64,000 bases of DNA, taken from contig JBGPFC010000008.1 of assembly GCA_041483195.1 (NCBI GenBank), forward strand, positions 32,001 to 96,000. Direction: 5' to 3'. Made by a program: the position numbers and the translations under genes. The notes beneath the pieces are model-generated. The model saw only the letters and a program-made list of their open reading frames with translations. It was not told the origin of the DNA and did not search any database. Each line of letters starts with the position of its first letter. Within the stretch, counting starts at the first letter, position 1. Origin of the DNA: Candidatus Eiseniibacteriota bacterium. GTDB lineage: Bacteria; Eisenbacteria; RBG-16-71-46. Below are positions 9,678-44,895 of the stretch, piece after piece.

Positions 9678-11855
9678 CTAGCGCCGCCGTCCCCGGTCCC
9701 GGTCACGATCGCGGCCGCGATCGTGTTCCCGCTCGCGCCCGCCGCCCGCGCCGGCCCCGGCGGGGACGCCGCCCTCGGGCTCGGGCAGCAGCGCCTTGCG
9801 CGAGAGCTTGATCTTGCCGTCGCGGTCCACGCCGATCACCTTGACCATGACCATGTCGCCGACGTTCAGCACGTCTTCGGTACGGGCCACGCGATGGTGA
9901 TCGATCTCCGAGATGTGGAGCAGGCCGTCCCGGCCGGGCACGATCTCGACGAACGCGCCGAACGTCACGACGCTGCGCACCTTGCCCGTGTACACGCGGC
10001 CGGGCTCGGGATCTTCTGTGATGTTGCGGATCATCTCCTCGGCGCGACGGCCTCCCTCGCCGTTGACGGCCGCGATCCGCACCTCGCCGCTGTCCTCGAT
10101 GTCGATCTGGGTCCCGGTCTCCTCGGTGATGCGCTTGATGATCTTGCCGCCCGGGCCGATGACTTCGCGGATCTTGTCGGGGTTGATCTGCACGATGATG
10201 ATGCGCGGCGCGTACGGGGACATCTCGGCCCGCGGCTTCGGCAGCGCCTGTTCCATGAGCCCGAGGATGTGGAGACGGCCCTTGCGCGCCCGCTCCAGGG
10301 CGCTCGCGAGCACCTCGAACGAGATGCCACCGATCTTGGTGTCCATCTGGAACGCGGTCACGCCCTCCCGCGTGCCGGTGACCTTGAAGTCCATGTCGCC
10401 GAGATGGTCCTCGACGCCGAGGATGTCGGTCAGCACCGCGACGCGCTCGCCTTCCTTGATCAGGCCCATCGCGATCCCGGCCACCGGCGCCTTGATCGGC
10501 ACGCCGGCATCCATCAGCGACATGGAGCCCGCGCACACGGTCGCCATCGACGACGAGCCGTTCGACTCGAGGATGTCGCTCACGATGCGCAGGGTGTATG
10601 GGAAGTGGGTCTCCGCCGGGATGACCGGCTCGATCGAACGTTCCGCGAGCGCGCCGTGACCGATCTCACGCCGGCCCGGGCCCCGGATGGGCCGCACCTC
10701 GCCGACGCTGAACGGCGGGAAGTTGTAGTGCAGCATGTAGGACTTCCAGGACTGCCCCTCGAGTTCCTCGACGCGCTGCTCGTCGCTCTTGGTGCCGAGC
10801 GTGGCGACCGCTAGCGCCTGCGTCTCGCCGCGGGTGAAGAGACACGACCCGTGCGTGCGGGGCAGCACCCCGACCTCGACCGTGACCTTGCGGATGTCGT
10901 CGAGCCCGCGTCCGTCGGCGCGAATCCCCTCGCTCAACACCATGTTGCGCAACTCGTCGCGCTCGATGTCGTGCAGGAGCTTGCCGATGAACATCTCCTG
11001 CTCGGCGAAGCGTTCCTTGAGCGCGGCGATCGCCTCGACGGTGATGCGGTCCACTTCCTCCTGGCGCGCCTCCTTGCCGGGAATTCGGATCGCCTGCCCG
11101 AGCCGCTCGCGATAGCCCTGGGAGAGGGCGTCCTTGAGCGCGCCGGTGTCCGGAGGCGTGACGAGCGGGCGCTTGGGTTTGCCCGCCTTCGCGACCAGAT
11201 CCTTCTGGATCCCGACGATCGCGCGGATGTGGCCCGCTGCGAACTCGAGGGCCTCGATCAGCACGCTCTCCGGCAGCTCGCGCGTGCCGCCCTCCACCAT
11301 GATGATGTTGTCGGCCGTACCCGCCACTACCATGTCCATGTCGCTCTCGTCGAGCTGGCTGATGGTGGGGTTGACGACGAATGCCCCGTCCACGCGGCCG
11401 ACGCGCACGCCGGCGATGGGCTCTGGGAACGGAATGTCGGAAAGCGTCATGGCCGCCGAGGCCCCGATCAGCGCGAGCACGTCTGCGTCGTTCTGCTGGT
11501 CGGAGGAGACCACCGTCGCCATGATCTGCGTCTCGTACGGGAACTGCTTCGAGAACAGCGGGCGGATCGGGCGATCGATCAGCCGCGAGCTCAGCACTTC
11601 CTTCTCGGTCGGCCGGCCTTCCCGCTTGAAGAACCCGCCGGGGATCTTCCCGGCGGCGTACGTGCGCTCGCGGTAGTCCACGGTGAGCGGCACGAAATCG
11701 CGATTGGGGCTCGCCATCTTGGCCGCGCTCGCGGCCACCAGCACGACGGTTTCACCCAGTTGGACGACGGCGGATCCACCCGCCAGCTTGGCCAGCTTTC
11801 CAGTGCTGATACTGAGCGTCTGCCCACCGAGTTCCAGACTCACGTTTTGTTCCAT
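9678..11855 (-). CDS. pnp: Polyribonucleotide nucleotidyltransferase
   Basis: PGGFFKREGRP, RREIGHG, EDHLGDMDFKV, KH and S1 domains. Confidence 0.98.
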   Translation of the reverse strand: MEQNVSLELGGQTLSISTGKLAKLAGGSAVVQLGETVVLVAASAAKMASPNRDFVPLTVDYRERTYAAGKIPGGFFKREGRPTEKEVLSSRLIDRPIRPLFSKQFPYETQIMATVVSSDQQNDADVLALIGASAAMTLSDIPFPEPIAGVRVGRVDGAFVVNPTISQLDESDMDMVVAGTADNIIMVEGGTRELPESVLIEALEFAAGHIRAIVGIQKDLVAKAGKPKRPLVTPPDTGALKDALSQGYRERLGQAIRIPGKEARQEEVDRITVEAIAALKERFAEQEMFIGKLLHDIERDELRNMVLSEGIRADGRGLDDIRKVTVEVGVLPRTHGSCLFTRGETQALAVATLGTKSDEQRVEELEGQSWKSYMLHYNFPPFSVGEVRPIRGPGRREIGHGALAERSIEPVIPAETHFPYTLRIVSDILESNGSSSMATVCAGSMSLMDAGVPIKAPVAGIAMGLIKEGERVAVLTDILGVEDHLGDMDFKVTGTREGVTAFQMDTKIGGISFEVLASALERARKGRLHILGLMEQALPKPRAEMSPYAPRIIIVQINPDKIREVIGPGGKIIKRITEETGTQIDIEDSGEVRIAAVNGEGGRRAEEMIRNITEDPEPGRVYTGKVRSVVTFGAFVEIVPGRDGLLHISEIDHHRVARTEDVLNVGDMVMVKVIGVDRDGKIKLSRKALLPEPEGGVPAGAGAGGGREREHDRGRDRDRDRGRRR

Positions 11856-39018: not shown

Positions 39019-40425
39019 ATGCAAACCTCAGAGCCCCAGGCGCGCATTCTCGTCGTCGACGACGAGCCGCAGACCGCGGTCGCCATCGAGCGGATGGTCG
39101 CGCACTTCGGTCACGATGTGGTGGGAGCCGACTCCGCGGAAGCCGCGATCCGTCACTTCACCGGGTCGTCGATCGACGTCGTGCTCACCGATCTCAACCT
39201 GGGACGAACCGACGGACTCGAATTGCTCCGCCGCATGCAGGAGCACGATCCCACCGTCCCGGTCGTGCTCATTACGGGGTACGCCACCGCGAATTCGGCC
39301 ATGGAGGCGATTCAGGCCGGCGCCTACGACTACCTTCCCAAGCCCCCCACGCTCGAAGCGATTGGCGCGCTGCTCCGGCGTGCGATCGAGAAGAAACGAA
39401 ACACCGAGGCGAATCGGCGGAGCGAGCTGGTTCCCGAAGTGCCCGGTCTGCTCGACGAGATCGTCTCGGGCAAGTCATCCCGCATGCTCGACGTCTACAA
39501 GGTGGTCGCGCGGGTTGCCATGGCCCGAAGCAGCGTGCTCATCCTCGGGGAAAGCGGAACCGGGAAGGAGCTGGTCGCGCGCGCCCTCCATCGCAGGAGC
39601 CCGCGCGCCGACCGCGACTTCGTCCCGGTCAACGTCTCGGCGATCCCGGAAGGGCTGCTGGAGAGTGAACTGTTCGGACACGTGCGGGGAGCCTTCACCG
39701 GCGCATCGTCCTCGCGCCGCGGCCTCTTCGATCAGGCCCACCTCGGCACGCTGTTCCTGGACGAGATCGGCGATCTCACCATCACGTTGCAGGCCAAGCT
39801 GCTGCGCGTGCTCCAGGAGCATCGCTTCAAGCCGGTCGGCAGCAACGAGGAAACGGAAGTGGACGTGCGCGTGGTCGGCGCGACCCATCGCAATCTCGAG
39901 GAGATGGTGCGGCTGGGGCGGTTTCGCGAGGATCTCTATTACCGGCTCAACGTGGTGTCGGTCTCGCTCCCGCCGCTGCGCGAACGGCGCGAGGACATTC
40001 CGATCCTGATCGAGCATTTCCTGCGCAAGTACTCGCAACAGACCGGGCGGCCCGCACCCGGAGTGTCGCCCGAGGCGATGCGCCGCGCGATGGACTTCCC
40101 ATGGCCCGGCAACGTCCGCCAACTCGAAAACGTGATCGAGCGCGCGGTGGTGCTCTCCACACAGGGAGTGATCGGACCCGAGGCCATGCCGCCGCGCCTG
40201 CCCTGGAGCGGCGGAGCGATCGCGGTGGATCGGGCCGAATTTCCGAGCCTCGACGAGATCATCCAGCGCTACGTCGAGGAGGTGCTCGCTCACACCGGGG
40301 GCAATCGTACGCGCGCGGCCATGATTCTCGGCATCTCCCGGCGCACGCTCCACAGGATGGCAGAGCGCGAGCGTCAGGGGGCCACGCGTGGCAGCGACGA
40401 CTTGACCCACATCGGGCAAGACTGA
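39019..40425 (+). CDS. Sigma54-dependent response regulator (REC-AAA+-Fis HTH, NtrC/AtoC family)
   Basis: ILVVDDE, GESGTGKE, ESELFGHVRGAFTGA, FREDLYYRLNV, WPGNVRQL, C-terminal HTH. Confidence 0.95.
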   Translation: MQTSEPQARILVVDDEPQTAVAIERMVAHFGHDVVGADSAEAAIRHFTGSSIDVVLTDLNLGRTDGLELLRRMQEHDPTVPVVLITGYATANSAMEAIQAGAYDYLPKPPTLEAIGALLRRAIEKKRNTEANRRSELVPEVPGLLDEIVSGKSSRMLDVYKVVARVAMARSSVLILGESGTGKELVARALHRRSPRADRDFVPVNVSAIPEGLLESELFGHVRGAFTGASSSRRGLFDQAHLGTLFLDEIGDLTITLQAKLLRVLQEHRFKPVGSNEETEVDVRVVGATHRNLEEMVRLGRFREDLYYRLNVVSVSLPPLRERREDIPILIEHFLRKYSQQTGRPAPGVSPEAMRRAMDFPWPGNVRQLENVIERAVVLSTQGVIGPEAMPPRLPWSGGAIAVDRAEFPSLDEIIQRYVEEVLAHTGGNRTRAAMILGISRRTLHRMAERERQGATRGSDDLTHIGQD

Positions 40426-40606
40426 CGCTCAAGTTCCAACACTCTCCTGCTACCCAAGTTGTAGCGGCACCCGCGCCGGGCTGGGACATTTCGGCGCTGC
40501 GACGCCAGACGACACGGCCCGCCCGGGAATAGATTGGCCGAGCGCGAGTCCCGCAACCCTTTACCATACGAAACGATGAGAACTACGGCCTGCGATTCTC
40601 CATCGC

Positions 40607-40621
40607 TGGCATGTGAGTTGC
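40607..40621 (+). promoter_or_regulatory. Sigma54 (-24/-12) promoter
   Basis: TGGCAT-GTGAG-TTGC fits TGGCAY-N5-TTGC with correct spacing; directly downstream of a bEBP gene. Confidence 0.75.
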
Positions 40622-40632
40622 GGCTATCTTCT

Positions 40633-40853
40633 CTATGGGGTGGACAGTCTTCCCCGCATGGACGCGGGTACGTTTGGCAACCGAGCAGACGCCGCATGAG
40701 AAGTTGGGGCCACAGACCGAGGCGCGGCGGCGCGCAGGTTGCGATTGTCTGTCGTCACCGTGTGAGGGGCACGGAGAATCCGAGGGGCCTGTCCCGATCG
40801 CGTGTGGCGGCAGTTTGGGAGCGGGGGGCGAGTGCCCCCCGCTTCATTTTCTT
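40633..40853 (+). ncRNA. Candidate sigma54-dependent small RNA (~220 nt)
   Basis: Bounded by sigma54 promoter and a +strand intrinsic terminator; several hairpins; no credible ORF. Confidence 0.5.
40818..40853 (+). terminator. Rho-independent terminator
   Basis: GAGCGGGGGGC-GAGT-GCCCCCCGCTT followed by CATTTTCTT. Confidence 0.8.
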
Positions 40854-40876
40854 GTGACCCTCGGCCGCTCCGCGAG

Positions 40877-42595
40877 CTAGTCGTTCCGGGGCGCGCGTCG
40901 GGCCCGGCCGGGTCGGCGACCGTATGCCCCGGGCGCCGGTTTCGCGATCGCGGGTGGCGCTTCGCGCATGGCGGGCGCGGCCGGCTCATGCGCCGGCGAG
41001 TCCTCGTGCTCGTCCACGTCCTCGGGCGCTTCCGATCCGGTCGATTCTTCCGGCGTGGCCTCCGGCGCGTCCTCGAACCTGACGGGTTCCGACAGGTCGG
41101 GCACGGCCTCGGGATGAAACTCCTCCTCGACTGGGGACGGCTCGATCGCATACGGATCGACGTGACGCTCCTCGATCGGGCCCTCCGGTCTGCCCACTTC
41201 TTCGAGCTCGTCCTCCTCGTAAGCCGGCGGAACAGGTTCGATCTCGCGCGGCTCGACTTCCGGCGGCTCGATCGCGCGCCGACGCGGAGCCACCGGCGCC
41301 CGTAGCGGCGCCCGCAGCGGCGCACGTTCGACCACCGCCTCGCGCTCGACCACCGGCGCACGCTCGACTACCGGCGCGCGCTCGACCACCGGCTCCGCGC
41401 TCTCCACCATCGGAGCTTCGTCGCCACGCGGCCTCCGACCGCGACCGCCGCGTCGTCCGCGGCGCCGGCGCCGGCGCATCTCATCGCTCTCATCTTCGGT
41501 CACGACCTCGGCCTGCGATTCGACGGCAGGCGCGGGCGTGGTCACGTGCCCTTCCCGCGATTCACGGACGCGCGGCTCACGCTCGCGAGGTTCGCGCTCG
41601 CCTCCCTCTCGGGCCGGCCGCTCGCCCCGCTCGCTGCCCACGCGATCGAGCGCGTCGCGTGCCGCGGCCTGCTCCGCCTCCTTCTTGTTGTTGCCCTTGC
41701 CCTCGCCGAGCGCCCGCCGCCCGACCAGCACCTCGACCATGAAGTGCTTCGAATGATCGGGGCCCATCTCACTGCGGATCCGATAGACCGGATGCGTGCG
41801 GAACGTGCTCTGCACGTACTCCTGCAGGTGGCTCTTGTAGTTCGTGTGCCGCTTGTCCGCGACGATCTCAGGCGCGTCGCGCAGCAACCACCGCTGGATG
41901 AAGGCCCGAGCTGCCTCGAACCCCTGATCCAGGTAGATCGCGCCGATCACGGATTCGAATGCGTCGGCCAGGATCGAGAGACGCTGCCTCCCGCCCGATT
42001 CGATCTCGGAGTGGCTCATCAGCACGAAACGCCCGAGGCCCATCGCCAGCGCGCGTCGCGAGAGGATGGCCTTCGACACCAGCAGCGACTTGGTCTTCGT
42101 GAGCTGGCCTTCGTGCTCCGTGGGATGTTGCCGGTACAACGACTCGCTGGTCACCAGTCCCAGCACCGAGTCGCCCAGGAACTCCAGACGCTCGTTGGAT
42201 TCGCGGGGACCCTGCCCCGTCACGCTCAGGTAGGAGCGGTGGGTGAGCGCGAGCTTGAGCAGCTCGAGCCGATTGAAGGTGATGCCGTAGTGGCGCCCGA
42301 ACTCGGCGAGGATGCGGGCTTCCTGCTCGCTGGTCCCGATTCTCGCGGCGCGCTGCTCAGGGGCGCGGCGCGGCGGCGCGAACAGCGACCGCAGCCAGCT
42401 CCATAGCGAGAATCCCCGGCGGGGCGGCGGCGGTTGCGGTCCGCGCGGCCGGCGCCTGCCCCCGCGGCGGCGGCGTCCTACGTCGCGGCCTTCATGGCCA
42501 GAGTCACGTTGTGTCCCCCGAACCCGAACGAGTTCGAGAGAGCGGCCCTCACGCGCAGCGCGCGGGCCTGGTTGGGAACGAAATCGAGGTCGCAT
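40877..42595 (-). CDS. rnc: Ribonuclease III with N-terminal extension and long disordered C-terminal tail (start uncertain)
   Basis: ALTHRS, NERLEFLGDSVL, LADAFESVIGAIYLD, dsRBD (NYKSHLQE...KKEAEQAAA); follows fabF. Confidence 0.9.
   Translation of the reverse strand: MRPRFRSQPGPRAAREGRSLELVRVRGTQRDSGHEGRDVGRRRRGGRRRPRGPQPPPPRRGFSLWSWLRSLFAPPRRAPEQRAARIGTSEQEARILAEFGRHYGITFNRLELLKLALTHRSYLSVTGQGPRESNERLEFLGDSVLGLVTSESLYRQHPTEHEGQLTKTKSLLVSKAILSRRALAMGLGRFVLMSHSEIESGGRQRLSILADAFESVIGAIYLDQGFEAARAFIQRWLLRDAPEIVADKRHTNYKSHLQEYVQSTFRTHPVYRIRSEMGPDHSKHFMVEVLVGRRALGEGKGNNKKEAEQAAARDALDRVGSERGERPAREGGEREPREREPRVRESREGHVTTPAPAVESQAEVVTEDESDEMRRRRRRGRRGGRGRRPRGDEAPMVESAEPVVERAPVVERAPVVEREAVVERAPLRAPLRAPVAPRRRAIEPPEVEPREIEPVPPAYEEDELEEVGRPEGPIEERHVDPYAIEPSPVEEEFHPEAVPDLSEPVRFEDAPEATPEESTGSEAPEDVDEHEDSPAHEPAAPAMREAPPAIAKPAPGAYGRRPGRARRAPRND
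41295..41410 (-). repeat. Coding tandem repeats in the rnc tail (18-bp PVVERA units, 12-bp RAPL units)
   Basis: Repeated cgctcgaccaccggcgc units; translation EPVVERAPVVERAPVVEREAVVERAPLRAPLRAP. Confidence 0.8.
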
Positions 42596-43725
42596 TGAGG
42601 ATCCAGTTGTTCGAGGTTGGTCGTCGGAGGGACGATCCCGCGCGCCAGGGTCAGCGCCGTCACCACGGCTTCGAGTCCGCCGGCGGCACCCAGCAGGTGG
42701 CCGGTCATGGACTTGGTCGAGCTCATCATCAGCTTGCGCGCGTGCTCGCCGAACACCCGCTTCACCGCCACGACCTCGATGGGGTCGCCGGTGGGAGTCG
42801 AGGTGCCATGGGCGTTGATGTAGAGCACGTCTTCCGCCGGGATGCCGGCGTCTGCCAGCGCGCGCTGCATCGCGCGCGCCGCGCCGTCACCATCCGCGCT
42901 GGGCGCGGTGATGTGGAATGCATCCGCGGATGCGCCGTAGCCGCTGAGCTCGCAGAGAACCGTCGCGTTGCGGCGCCGGGCGTGGTCCTCGGTCTCGAGG
43001 ACGATCACGCCCGCGCCTTCGCCGATGACGAAGCCGTCACGATCCTTGTCGAACGGACGGCTGGCTCGCTGCGGGTCGTCGTTTCGTGTTGAGAGTGTGC
43101 GCGCATTGCCGAATCCAGCCAGCGCCATCGGCGTGATGGTGGATTCGCTGCCGCCCGCGAGGATCACGTCGGCATCCCCGGCGCGCAAGAGGCGCAGCGC
43201 TTCGCCGATCGCGTGTGCGCCCGATGCGCACGCCGAGACCGTACAGAAGTTGGGTCCCTTGAGACCGAACTGGATGGACACCTGCCCGGCGCCCATGTCC
43301 GAGATCATCATCGGGATGAAGAACGGGCTGACCCGGCCCGGACCGCGTTCGACCAGAATGCGGTGCTGGGTCTCGAAGGTTTCCATTCCGCCGATCCCCG
43401 AGCCCACGATGACGCCGATGCGATCGCGGTTCTCGGCATCCAGATCGAGCCCGGAGTTCCGGATCGCTTCATGGCAGGCGACCACCGCGTACTGAACGAA
43501 GCGGTCCATGCGCTTCGCGTCCTTGCGGTCGATCACCCCTTCCGTCGAGAACCCCTTCACTTCGCACCCAAAGCGGGTGCCGTACTCCGAGGTGTCGAAT
43601 CGAGTGATCGGACCGGCGCCGGACACTCCGGCGATCAGCTGCTTCCAGAACGATTCGGTGTCGTTCCCGAGCGGGGAAATCACACCCGCCCCGGTGACGA
43701 ACACCCGCCGCTCATGACTGGACAT
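42478..43725 (-). CDS. fabF: 3-oxoacyl-ACP synthase II
   Basis: SACASGAHAIG, INAHGTST, KSMTGHLLGAAG, NSFGFGG. Confidence 0.97.
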   Translation of the reverse strand: MSSHERRVFVTGAGVISPLGNDTESFWKQLIAGVSGAGPITRFDTSEYGTRFGCEVKGFSTEGVIDRKDAKRMDRFVQYAVVACHEAIRNSGLDLDAENRDRIGVIVGSGIGGMETFETQHRILVERGPGRVSPFFIPMMISDMGAGQVSIQFGLKGPNFCTVSACASGAHAIGEALRLLRAGDADVILAGGSESTITPMALAGFGNARTLSTRNDDPQRASRPFDKDRDGFVIGEGAGVIVLETEDHARRRNATVLCELSGYGASADAFHITAPSADGDGAARAMQRALADAGIPAEDVLYINAHGTSTPTGDPIEVVAVKRVFGEHARKLMMSSTKSMTGHLLGAAGGLEAVVTALTLARGIVPPTTNLEQLDPQCDLDFVPNQARALRVRAALSNSFGFGGHNVTLAMKAAT

Positions 43726-43821
43726 TGATGGTCGGCTCTCCGTTGCCTCGAGTTCCGCCCGCGCGCGGCGCAGCCACTACACGTTGCCGGAACGCGCGGC
43801 GCTCGCTGCGGATCTCCCGCC

Positions 43822-44070
43822 CTAGGACTGGGCGGCGGCGTGTGACTTCAAGTAGTTCATCGCGTCGCCGACGGTCTTGAGCTTGTCGGCGTCCTCGTCC
43901 GGAATATCGATCCCGAACTCTTCCTCGAGCGCCATCACCAGCTCGACGATGTCGAGCGAATCGGCGCCCAGGTCTTCGATGAACTTCGCGTCCGGGGTCA
44001 ACTGCTTGGCCTCGACTTCGAGTTCCTTGGCGATGATCTCCTTCACCCGGTCTTCACTGAATGTCGCCAC
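43822..44070 (-). CDS. acpP: Acyl carrier protein
   Basis: [17 protein letters not shown] start after AGGAGG. Confidence 0.97.
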
Positions 44071-44115
44071 CTGATTCACCTCCTGTTGTGGTTCGAGAAG
44101 TGCCATTCCATTCGA

Positions 44116-44895
44116 CTACATCACCATTCCGCCGTCCACCGTCCACACCTGCCCGGTGACGTACGAAGCGCGCGGCGAAGCGAGAAACCCGACCACCTCC
44201 GCGACTTCCTCGGGCCGGCCCAGTCGCCCGAGCGGAATGCGTCCCAGCAAGGCGGTCTTCACCGGTTCGGGAAGCGAGGCGGTCATCTCGGTCTCGATGA
44301 AGCCGGGACACACCGCGTTCACCGTGATCGCGCGCCCGCTCAGTTCCCGGGCCAGCGACACCGTGAGGCCCAGCAGCCCCGCCTTCGAGGCCGCGTAGTT
44401 GGCCTGCCCGGGGTTTCCGATCAGGCCGACGACCGACGAGACGTTCACGATGCGGCCGTAGCGCGCCTTCATCATGGGGCGCACCACCTCGCGACAGCAA
44501 CGGAAGGCGCCGGTGAGGTTGGTCTCGAGCACCTCGTGCCACTGCGCGTCGGCCATGCGCATGAACGCGCCGTCGCGCGCGAGGCCCGCGTTGTTCACGA
44601 GCACGTCGACCCGCCGCAGCTCGGCGAGCGCGGTTCCGAACGCCGATTCGACCGAGGCGGTATCGGAGACATCGGCCGCGAACGCGCGCGCCGGGTGCCC
44701 CGCGGCCCGCAGGCTCTCGACCGCGGCGCCCGCACGCTCCTGATTGCGGCCGAAGATCGCGACCGTCGCGCCGCGCGCGCCCAGCGTCCGGGCGATGGCG
44801 AGCCCGATCCCGGTCGCGCCGCCGGTGACGAACGCCACCTGCCCCGCGAGCTCCCGGCCGGCCACGGTCGCGGCGGCGCCGAGCGTTTCGGACAT
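44116..44895 (-). CDS. fabG: 3-oxoacyl-ACP reductase
   Basis: [26 protein letters not shown]. Confidence 0.95.

Follow-up and report, generated by a model that had tools for sequence, protein, structure and literature searches.

Does a bacterial RNase III carry its own membrane helix and disordered scaffold, as is known for RNase E? The usual view of bacterial RNase III is that of a small, soluble and invariant enzyme, and the spatial organisation of RNA decay is attributed either to RNase E, with its helix and disordered scaffold, or to RNase Y, with its transmembrane helix. The question is raised by the rnc gene in a window of 64,000 nucleotides (nt) of DNA, the whole stretch analysed here, from Candidatus Eiseniibacteriota (GCA_041483195.1, contig JBGPFC010000008.1, positions 32,001-96,000 of the forward strand). 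The product of this gene has 572 amino acids (aa), against 221-252 aa in solved bacterial RNase III chains, and is composed of a 95-aa N-terminal extension, the enzyme core (aa ~96-320) and a 250-aa tail. An original prediction had seen in it an RNase E-like membrane helix and scaffold tail. The amphipathic helix (hydrophobic moment, muH, 0.63, and helical in the AlphaFold2 model), the alternating charge blocks and the conserved short motifs are indeed present; membrane docking and a scaffold role are what we infer from them, and any binding partner, like the scaffolding of an RNA-decay complex, is conjectural. Our preferred, still tentative reading of the sequence is that of a membrane-peripheral, RNA-binding RNase III with a partner-docking motif in its tail.

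The protein is a class-1 RNase III by every defining test, compact size being descriptive of the class and not defining. It scores 247 bits with the NCBIfam equivalog TIGR02191 against a cut-off of 166.25, and Pfam recognises PF14622 (Ribonucleas_3_3; aa 111-240, 7.1e-37), PF00636 (Ribonuclease_3; aa 135-225, 9.2e-23) and a single domain binding double-stranded RNA (dsRBD; PF00035, dsrm; aa 253-317, 2.3e-15). The acids of the catalytic signature, E135, E138, D142, D211 and E214, are invariant in the 50-sequence alignment from which the residue conservation of core and tail was taken and which was also fed to AlphaFold2. The best solved relative of the core is Thermotoga 1o0w (E 1.4e-43), and the catalytic core is intact. 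Only one RNase III match is present in the genome, and the protein is its sole housekeeping class-1 RNase III, elaborated at both ends. A Pfam scan of the product did not detect the RNase E/G catalytic domain PF10150, which in this genome sits in a protein encoded elsewhere (G000:C2); the protein is not a member of the RNase E/G family, and its likeness to the C-terminal half of RNase E is architectural only. With the known class-1 enzymes (TIGR02191; 1o0w of Thermotoga, 2a11 of Mycobacterium, 1yyk and 2ez6 of Aquifex) it shares one catalytic domain with one dsRBD, the invariant acids, the single copy and the location of rnc next to fatty-acid synthesis genes. It differs from them in its length, in the helix-bearing N-terminal extension, in the motif-bearing disordered tail and in a start codon placed inside the upstream gene.

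This upstream gene, fabF (beta-ketoacyl-ACP synthase II), directly precedes rnc on the same strand in 55 of 55 loci. Reading the rnc frame from the ATG at 42595, the next canonical start codon (ATG, GTG or TTG) is a GTG within the catalytic domain, and as no other such codon precedes the core, rnc must start at 42595, 118 nt inside fabF. The gene edge had originally been set at 42477, a position just past the fabF stop codon (42478-42480) which is neither a codon boundary nor a start; the coding sequence is 40877-42595. The ATG is composed of the last base of the fabF codon preceding a conserved Cys and of the TG of the Cys codon. We surveyed this site in 35 orthologous loci, 29 of them long-form (24 of family f1 and 5 of family f3) and six short-form; the locus counts for the start region come from kin genomes and are not independent events. 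An in-frame ATG is found at the equivalent place in all 29 long-form loci, where the A is supplied by CAA (14), GAA (7), ACA (4), GCA (2), AAA (1) or CGA (1). These fabF codons specify six amino acids (Q, E, T, A, K and R) and their third base is always A, while A occupies 512 of 6969 third positions (7.3%) in the rest of the same genes. That six different codons all end in A is the strongest part of the start-codon argument. At the same fabF codon the six short-form relatives have GAG (three), GAA out of frame or closed by a stop (two) and GAA in frame and open (one, L030). In 15 of the 29 long-form loci no canonical start other than the embedded ATG precedes the core, and the overlap, among the 14 loci listed, measures 118 nt with the exception of L013 (121 nt). 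Translation has to begin at this ATG within fabF. The conserved embedded start is a plain example of synonymous sites in one gene being selected for the initiation of the gene that follows. The GC content at third codon positions (GC3) of the 39 overlapping codons is 0.48, because fabF sets the phase there; the conservation of these codons is therefore uninformative on rnc.

Some further features of the start region were recorded. A GGATCC is present 4-9 nt ahead of the embedded ATG (window 42596-42610, inside fabF). The Asp codon upstream of the ATG is GAT in 26 of 29 long-form loci, versus 135 of 657 Asp codons (21%) elsewhere in fabF, and the base preceding it is G in 26 of 29. Together these unusual synonymous choices in fabF maintain the GGATCC. 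It may be a ribosome-binding element, perhaps by pairing with the tail of the 16S rRNA; the 3' end of the 16S rRNA was absent from the assembly when searched for. Among database entries P0019-P0120 many begin at an internal ATG, GTG or TTG and so omit the helix, the Arg-rich N-terminal extension or both, which means that automatic annotation often truncates this RNase III.

The helix-core-tail architecture is found in 29 of 29 orthologous long-form loci from two families and in at least 120 database homologues of 325-658 aa. The homologues with a name are nearly all 'Candidatus Eisenbacteria', and the few under other names are probably mis-binned. The original prediction depended on the helix and the tail being kept in close orthologues and on the helix following the true start; both are present in all of these orthologues, and the helix is located downstream of the only available start, which is itself conserved. 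That the long form is an assembly error or a stop-codon loss peculiar to this contig has a negligible probability: no support for it was found, and it is refuted by the same architecture in 29 independent genomes and hundreds of database proteins. The phylum survey covered 55 loci from 16 families, 26 of the loci being short-form. A search with the RNase III core only gave matches in 79 of 81 genomes sampled from the phylum; an initial RNase III search had given matches in 38 of 41, the three misses being f3 genomes of 76-90% completeness. Both tallies take in the unpublished genome G026, which enters no other claim.

The long N-terminal extension contains 27% Arg and has a net charge of +18. 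An Arg/Pro stretch and an amphipathic segment (aa 61-72) ahead of the nuclease and dsRBD core had been described originally, and all of these are confirmed within 40877-42477 of the minus strand (Table 1), the stretch being Arg/Gly-rich and then Pro-rich (aa 41-60, net charge +10). Of the 561 windows of 11 residues in the protein, the most amphipathic falls in this segment (mean hydrophobicity 0.56, net charge +3), and the corresponding helices of orthologues have muH values of 0.56-0.83. AlphaFold2 places a helix at residues 64-72 with a block predicted local distance difference test (pLDDT) value of 81, and the core, too, is modelled with confidence; pLDDT is below 50 over aa 1-51. Counted over 28 loci, W66 and L70 are invariant, F71 occurs in 26, L67 in 24 and W64 in 22, and at conserved positions the Leu codons vary synonymously (CTG, CTC, CTA and TTG). 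Aligned with the C-terminal segment of FtsA of the same genome, six of the 12 residues are identical in register, including five hydrophobic positions. FtsA, whose helix binds the membrane, served as the in-genome comparator, since the search for MinD in this genome gave no match above cut-off.

A basic amphipathic 11-mer is present 19-41 residues ahead of the core in 44 of the 55 loci, over 16 families, with an arbitrary threshold of muH at least 0.5, mean hydrophobicity at least 0.4 and net charge at least 0. Most of the 26 short forms have this segment directly behind the likely start codon or no more than a few residues from it, and in the window protein and the other long forms it is internal. 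Tails follow a different distribution. Long tails belong to families f1 and f3; one f12 genome has a tail of 266 aa and one f13 genome a tail of 117 aa, and families f2, f7, f8, f9 and others have an essentially tail-less RNase III. Tails are lineage-specific and the helix is spread across families, from which we conclude that the helix is of old standing in the phylum and that tail and long N-terminal extension were added later. As side observations, the f10 tails (L049-L053; G046, G050, G053, G055 and G076) measure 67-183 aa and contain an Arg/Gly island like that of f1, together with a different conserved C-terminal motif which is common to four of the five and looser in the fifth; a further type of conserved end is found in the f3 tails.

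The tail had been described as about 250 aa of low complexity, and its Arg/Glu repeats, Arg/Gly island, 6-aa repeats, acidic Glu/Pro block (aa 441-540) and basic end are all present. Glu makes up 20% of it, Arg and Pro 16% each and Ala 12%, its net charge is -19, and it forms six alternating blocks, each of at least three net charges per 10 residues; in the acidic stretch the net charge is -5 to -8 per 20 residues. Disorder prediction agrees with this picture, pLDDT being below 50 for nearly all of aa 326-569, with the only rise (54-69) over aa 441-460, adjoining the acidic motif. In the AlphaFold2 model of the full protein, which contains no contact information, the tail is not confidently docked on the core. 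Tails measure 201-432 aa in every long-form locus not running off its contig and are very divergent outside three islands. In the Arg/Gly island, R377, R378, R379, R381, R382, G383, G384, R385 and R387 are at least 90% conserved; in the acidic motif P470 is invariant and E466, G468, R469, G472, P473 and P481 are at least 90% conserved; in the C-terminal end, with its invariant G559 and R560, conservation of R561 and R564 is at least 90%, and the stop codon follows directly. The Arg/Gly island of the tail is near-identical to the one in the N-terminal extension, so that such islands flank the core on both sides.

Selection acts on the N-terminal extension and on the tail, and both are translated. 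This follows from GC3 values of 0.84 for the non-overlapping part of the extension and 0.83 for the tail, with 0.92 in the core, from helix residues kept while their Leu codons vary, and from the three tail islands with a stop codon directly after the last. It bears on a further alternative, namely that the extensions are functionless products of repeat expansion and GC-driven drift and that the enzyme is made from an internal non-canonical start near aa 90. Repeat units do differ in kind and number among orthologues, and an ATG or GTG is present at the canonical position in L007, L010, L014, L017, L021, L023 and L024; on the other side, there is no alternative start in this gene and in 14 other long-form loci, and the selective signatures on the embedded ATG, the helix and the three tail islands extend across two families. 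On the absent alternative starts and these signatures an internal or non-canonical start was rejected, and we regard functionless extensions as very improbable.

Of the 22 complete f1 tails, 19 contain the acidic motif, which is absent from f3 and f10. A profile of it, searched against 1.84 billion representatives, gave 59 matches, all apparently from this RNase III tail, whole or as a fragment: 56 finish in the same aromatic-Gly-Arg motif, 13 retain the end of the dsRBD and three the catalytic signature. No other protein family with the motif, and no lead to a partner, emerged from this search. In the genome itself, degenerate patterns for four motifs gave long open frames only in rnc, the other matches being short or having the look of out-of-frame, Arg-rich readings. 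Co-folding of the PNPase of the window with tail aa 440-572 returned a score of 0.00 which, having been obtained without controls, counts neither for nor against binding. The three f1 tails without the motif (L019, L022 and L023, a subclade) have a short conserved segment of their own just before the basic end.

Table 1. Features of the rnc locus, in positions of the 64,000-nt window. CDS, coding sequence; ORF, open reading frame; AF2, AlphaFold2; TRF, Tandem Repeats Finder.
Feature	Position	Strand	Basis or remark
rnc CDS, 572 aa and stop	40877..42595	-	ORF listing; TIGR02191 247 bits
rnc ATG start, embedded in fabF	42593..42595	-	sole ATG/GTG/TTG ahead of core in this gene
fabF/rnc overlap, 118 nt, encoding rnc aa 1-39 in +2 frame of fabF	42478..42595	-	ORF listing
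N-terminal Arg/Gly-rich stretch, aa 41-52	42440..42475	-	conserved in orthologues
Pro-rich spacer, aa 53-60	42416..42439	-	
Conserved cationic amphipathic helix, aa 61-72	42380..42415	-	muH, AF2, conservation
Pro/Arg/Ala linker, aa 73-95	42311..42379	-	pLDDT <50 at 76-78 and 80-86
Class-1 RNase III core (catalytic domain and dsRBD), aa 96-320	41636..42310	-	Pfam, NCBIfam
Arg/Glu(/Pro) repeat region, aa 321-348	41552..41635	-	length and sequence vary among orthologues; TRF period 15 at 41569-41601
Conserved Arg/Gly island, aa 374-391	41423..41476	-	alignment
6-aa tandem repeats, aa 402-434	41294..41392	-	TRF period 18 nt, 4.7 copies, 82% matches; not conserved in orthologues
Conserved acidic short linear motif (~33 aa), aa 451-483, candidate protein-docking site	41147..41245	-	alignment
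Variable acidic Glu/Pro block, aa 484-540	40976..41146	-	sequence not conserved
Conserved basic C-terminal end, aa 558-572	40880..40924	-	alignment
fabF (beta-ketoacyl-ACP synthase II), upstream gene containing rnc start	42478..43725	-	TIGR03150 635 bits

The remaining ribonucleases of the genome (96.8% complete) were compared with this protein, the original prediction having raised the matter of an RNase E/G tail. The only RNase E/G homologue has 510 aa (TIGR00757, 517 bits), aligns best to RNase G and stops after the catalytic and small domains without any tail. RNase Y is present and has an N-terminal hydrophobic (transmembrane) helix, and RNase J was not found in the genome. PNPase is encoded in the window itself (9678-11855, minus strand; 725 aa; TIGR03591, 1005 bits). 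Three other RNA-binding proteins have charged appendages: PNPase has a short Gly and then Arg/Asp/Glu-rich tail after its S1 domain, in a Jag/KhpB homologue (G000:C43:23843-25108, plus strand; L064) some 220 aa of disordered sequence rich in Arg, Asp and Gly separate Jag_N from KH/R3H, and an RluB-like protein with S4 and pseudouridine synthase domains (G000:C5:132191-133804, minus strand; L065) has about 240 aa of C-terminal tandem Arg/Glu/Pro repeats. Such appendages on RNA-binding proteins look like a habit of the lineage. A genome-wide scan for long charged disordered regions was too noisy to be used, alternative frames of GC-rich sequence dominating it; the two matches which were checked were both RNA-binding proteins. 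This context can be argued in either direction: there is no RNase E scaffold, yet a membrane RNase is present and charged appendages are common.

According to the favoured reading, the cationic helix between its flexible Pro-rich spacers would lay the enzyme peripherally on the cytoplasmic membrane, as the helices of FtsA, MinD and RNase E do. The Arg/Gly islands and the basic C-terminal end would bind RNA non-specifically and, together with the acidic blocks, would give the dimer a multivalent, charge-patterned capacity to associate with itself and with RNA. The acidic motif may dock a protein or, conceivably, basic surfaces of the enzyme itself. The outcome would be a double-stranded RNA nuclease gathered at the membrane or in an assembly rich in RNA, and not free in the cytoplasm.

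Several observations weigh against this. The helix has just about 9-12 residues and is internal, not terminal, in the long forms; 11 of the 55 loci are below the amphipathicity threshold; and of 500 shuffled sequences for each locus 0 to 268 reached the observed moment (41 of 500 for the window protein), so that composition alone accounts for part of the helix signal. In f7, f14 and f15 the equivalent segment is very Arg-rich (mean hydrophobicity 0.06-0.39, net charge +3 to +5) and has the appearance of an RNA-binding, arginine-rich peptide more than of a lipid anchor. The transmembrane RNase Y could already serve as the membrane RNase, and the charged disordered regions on PNPase, the Jag/KhpB homologue and the RluB-like pseudouridine synthase mean that the tail may be a generic lineage habit of RNA-binding proteins. 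These data could be accommodated without a membrane. The N-terminal segment and the Arg/Gly islands would then bind RNA in the manner of arginine-rich motifs, or the ribosome and pre-rRNA, or the nuclease dimer itself, raising affinity or altering substrate choice, and the tail would be a lineage appendage with nothing scaffolded on it. Beyond the low hydrophobicity of the f7, f14 and f15 segments and the appendages on other proteins, this explanation is in line with the fairly constant distance between segment and core, with the two near-identical islands on either side of the core, and with the fact that the only RNase III of the genome must still reach pre-rRNA. It fits less well with f1 and f3, where the helix has a face of Trp, Leu and Phe and a net charge of just 0 to +3, a combination typical of lipid-binding helices; nor does it account for the resemblance to the membrane segment of the cell's own FtsA, and an RNA-binding tail does not need an acidic, strongly conserved motif of 33 aa. 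RNA binding with no membrane involved is a realistic possibility, though we rather doubt it.

A stronger form of the membrane-peripheral reading carries the analogy with RNase E to its end. RNase III would be a membrane-tethered hub which recruits PNPase, a helicase, RNase Y or G and enolase through motifs in its tail, and degradosome-like foci or condensates would replace the missing RNase E scaffold. The alternating charge blocks, the three conserved islands with an acidic motif exclusive to this tail, the tail-less RNase E/G and the failure to find RNase J in the genome are consistent with such a hub. Evidence to the contrary is the lack of an identified binding partner, the absence of the acidic motif from three of 22 complete f1 tails and from f3 and f10 (any partner would therefore be clade-specific), the tail-less RNase III of sister families of the same order (L030, L034 and L035), and the presence of RNase Y, which is the usual hub in bacteria without RNase E. 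A full degradosome hub seems to us unlikely. We give similarly little credit to the most far-reaching proposal, that RNase III, and not RNase E, has convergently acquired the organiser toolkit of RNase E (membrane helix, Arg-rich islands, charge-block disorder and docking motif) and acts as a membrane-associated, condensate-forming hub whose synthesis is coupled to that of FabF via the embedded start. Were it true, the embedded start would link the dosage of a membrane-bound RNase to a gene of membrane lipid synthesis.

Comparison with known systems gives partial likenesses in each case. One paper describes the membrane-targeting sequence of RNase E as a conserved helix, amphipathic and about 15 residues long, which is replaceable by an unrelated, positively charged MinD helix (PMC13657362), and the membrane binding of the MinD helix is attributed there to refs 23 and 24. 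For the C-terminal domain of Caulobacter RNase E, alternating charge blocks are reported as necessary for self-assembly (bioRxiv 10.1101/272286). The RNase III described in this work has in common with the C-terminal half of RNase E (E. coli and Pseudomonas; BR-bodies of Caulobacter) a short, cationic and amphipathic predicted helix in flexible surroundings, segments rich in Arg, charge blocks of alternating sign, and short conserved islands in poorly conserved disorder. In distinction to RNase E, to which it has no homology, it belongs to the dimers specific for double-stranded RNA, RNase E being a tetramer specific for single-stranded RNA; its helix is N-terminal and its tail C-terminal to the core, while RNase E has both in one tail, and no recognisable partner site is found in it. 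The helices of FtsA and MinD are of similar length and have an aromatic/Leu face and basic flanks as has this helix, which is set in flexible Pro-rich linkers; theirs are at the extreme C-terminus, and this one is near the N-terminus in short forms and internal in long forms. E. coli RNase II reportedly has an amino-terminal amphipathic helix for membrane association. It is likewise a ribonuclease with such a helix, of an unrelated 3'-5' exonuclease family and without a disordered tail. Drosha, a class-2 RNase III, has Pro-rich and Arg/Ser-rich N-terminal regions with nuclear functions. Low-complexity Pro-rich and Arg-rich regions thus precede an RNase III core in both proteins, and similarity of the cores was seen; Drosha differs in having two catalytic domains in one chain, and homology of the extensions was neither detected nor is claimed.

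In the literature covered, from which subscription-only papers fall out, we found no account of a bacterial RNase III bearing a membrane helix or a disordered tail, nor of any Eisenbacteria ribonuclease. The helix, its presence throughout the phylum, the start embedded in fabF and the tail-less RNase G alongside are new here. With a phylum-wide helix, RNase III would offer a third way of organising RNA processing, independent of the other two, and two families which combine a long, motif-bearing RNase III tail with a tail-less RNase E/G constitute a natural test of which features of the RNase E tail are general.

Two observations concern neighbouring sequences. Upstream of the RNase G-like gene (L036; G000:C2:206010-209816) an ORF of 347 aa is present on the same strand, which, to judge by its sequence, may encode a radical-SAM-associated protein. 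Between rnc and a convergent sigma-54 response-regulator gene (ending at 40425) lies a 450-nt intergenic region (40426-40876) of lower GC content (0.61-0.63), and a scan of window positions 40000-44500 against Rfam gave no match. On the plus strand this region closes with a strong 12-bp GC hairpin (40818-40845) followed by a T-run, and it could be a long 3' untranslated region or an unannotated small RNA of that strand.

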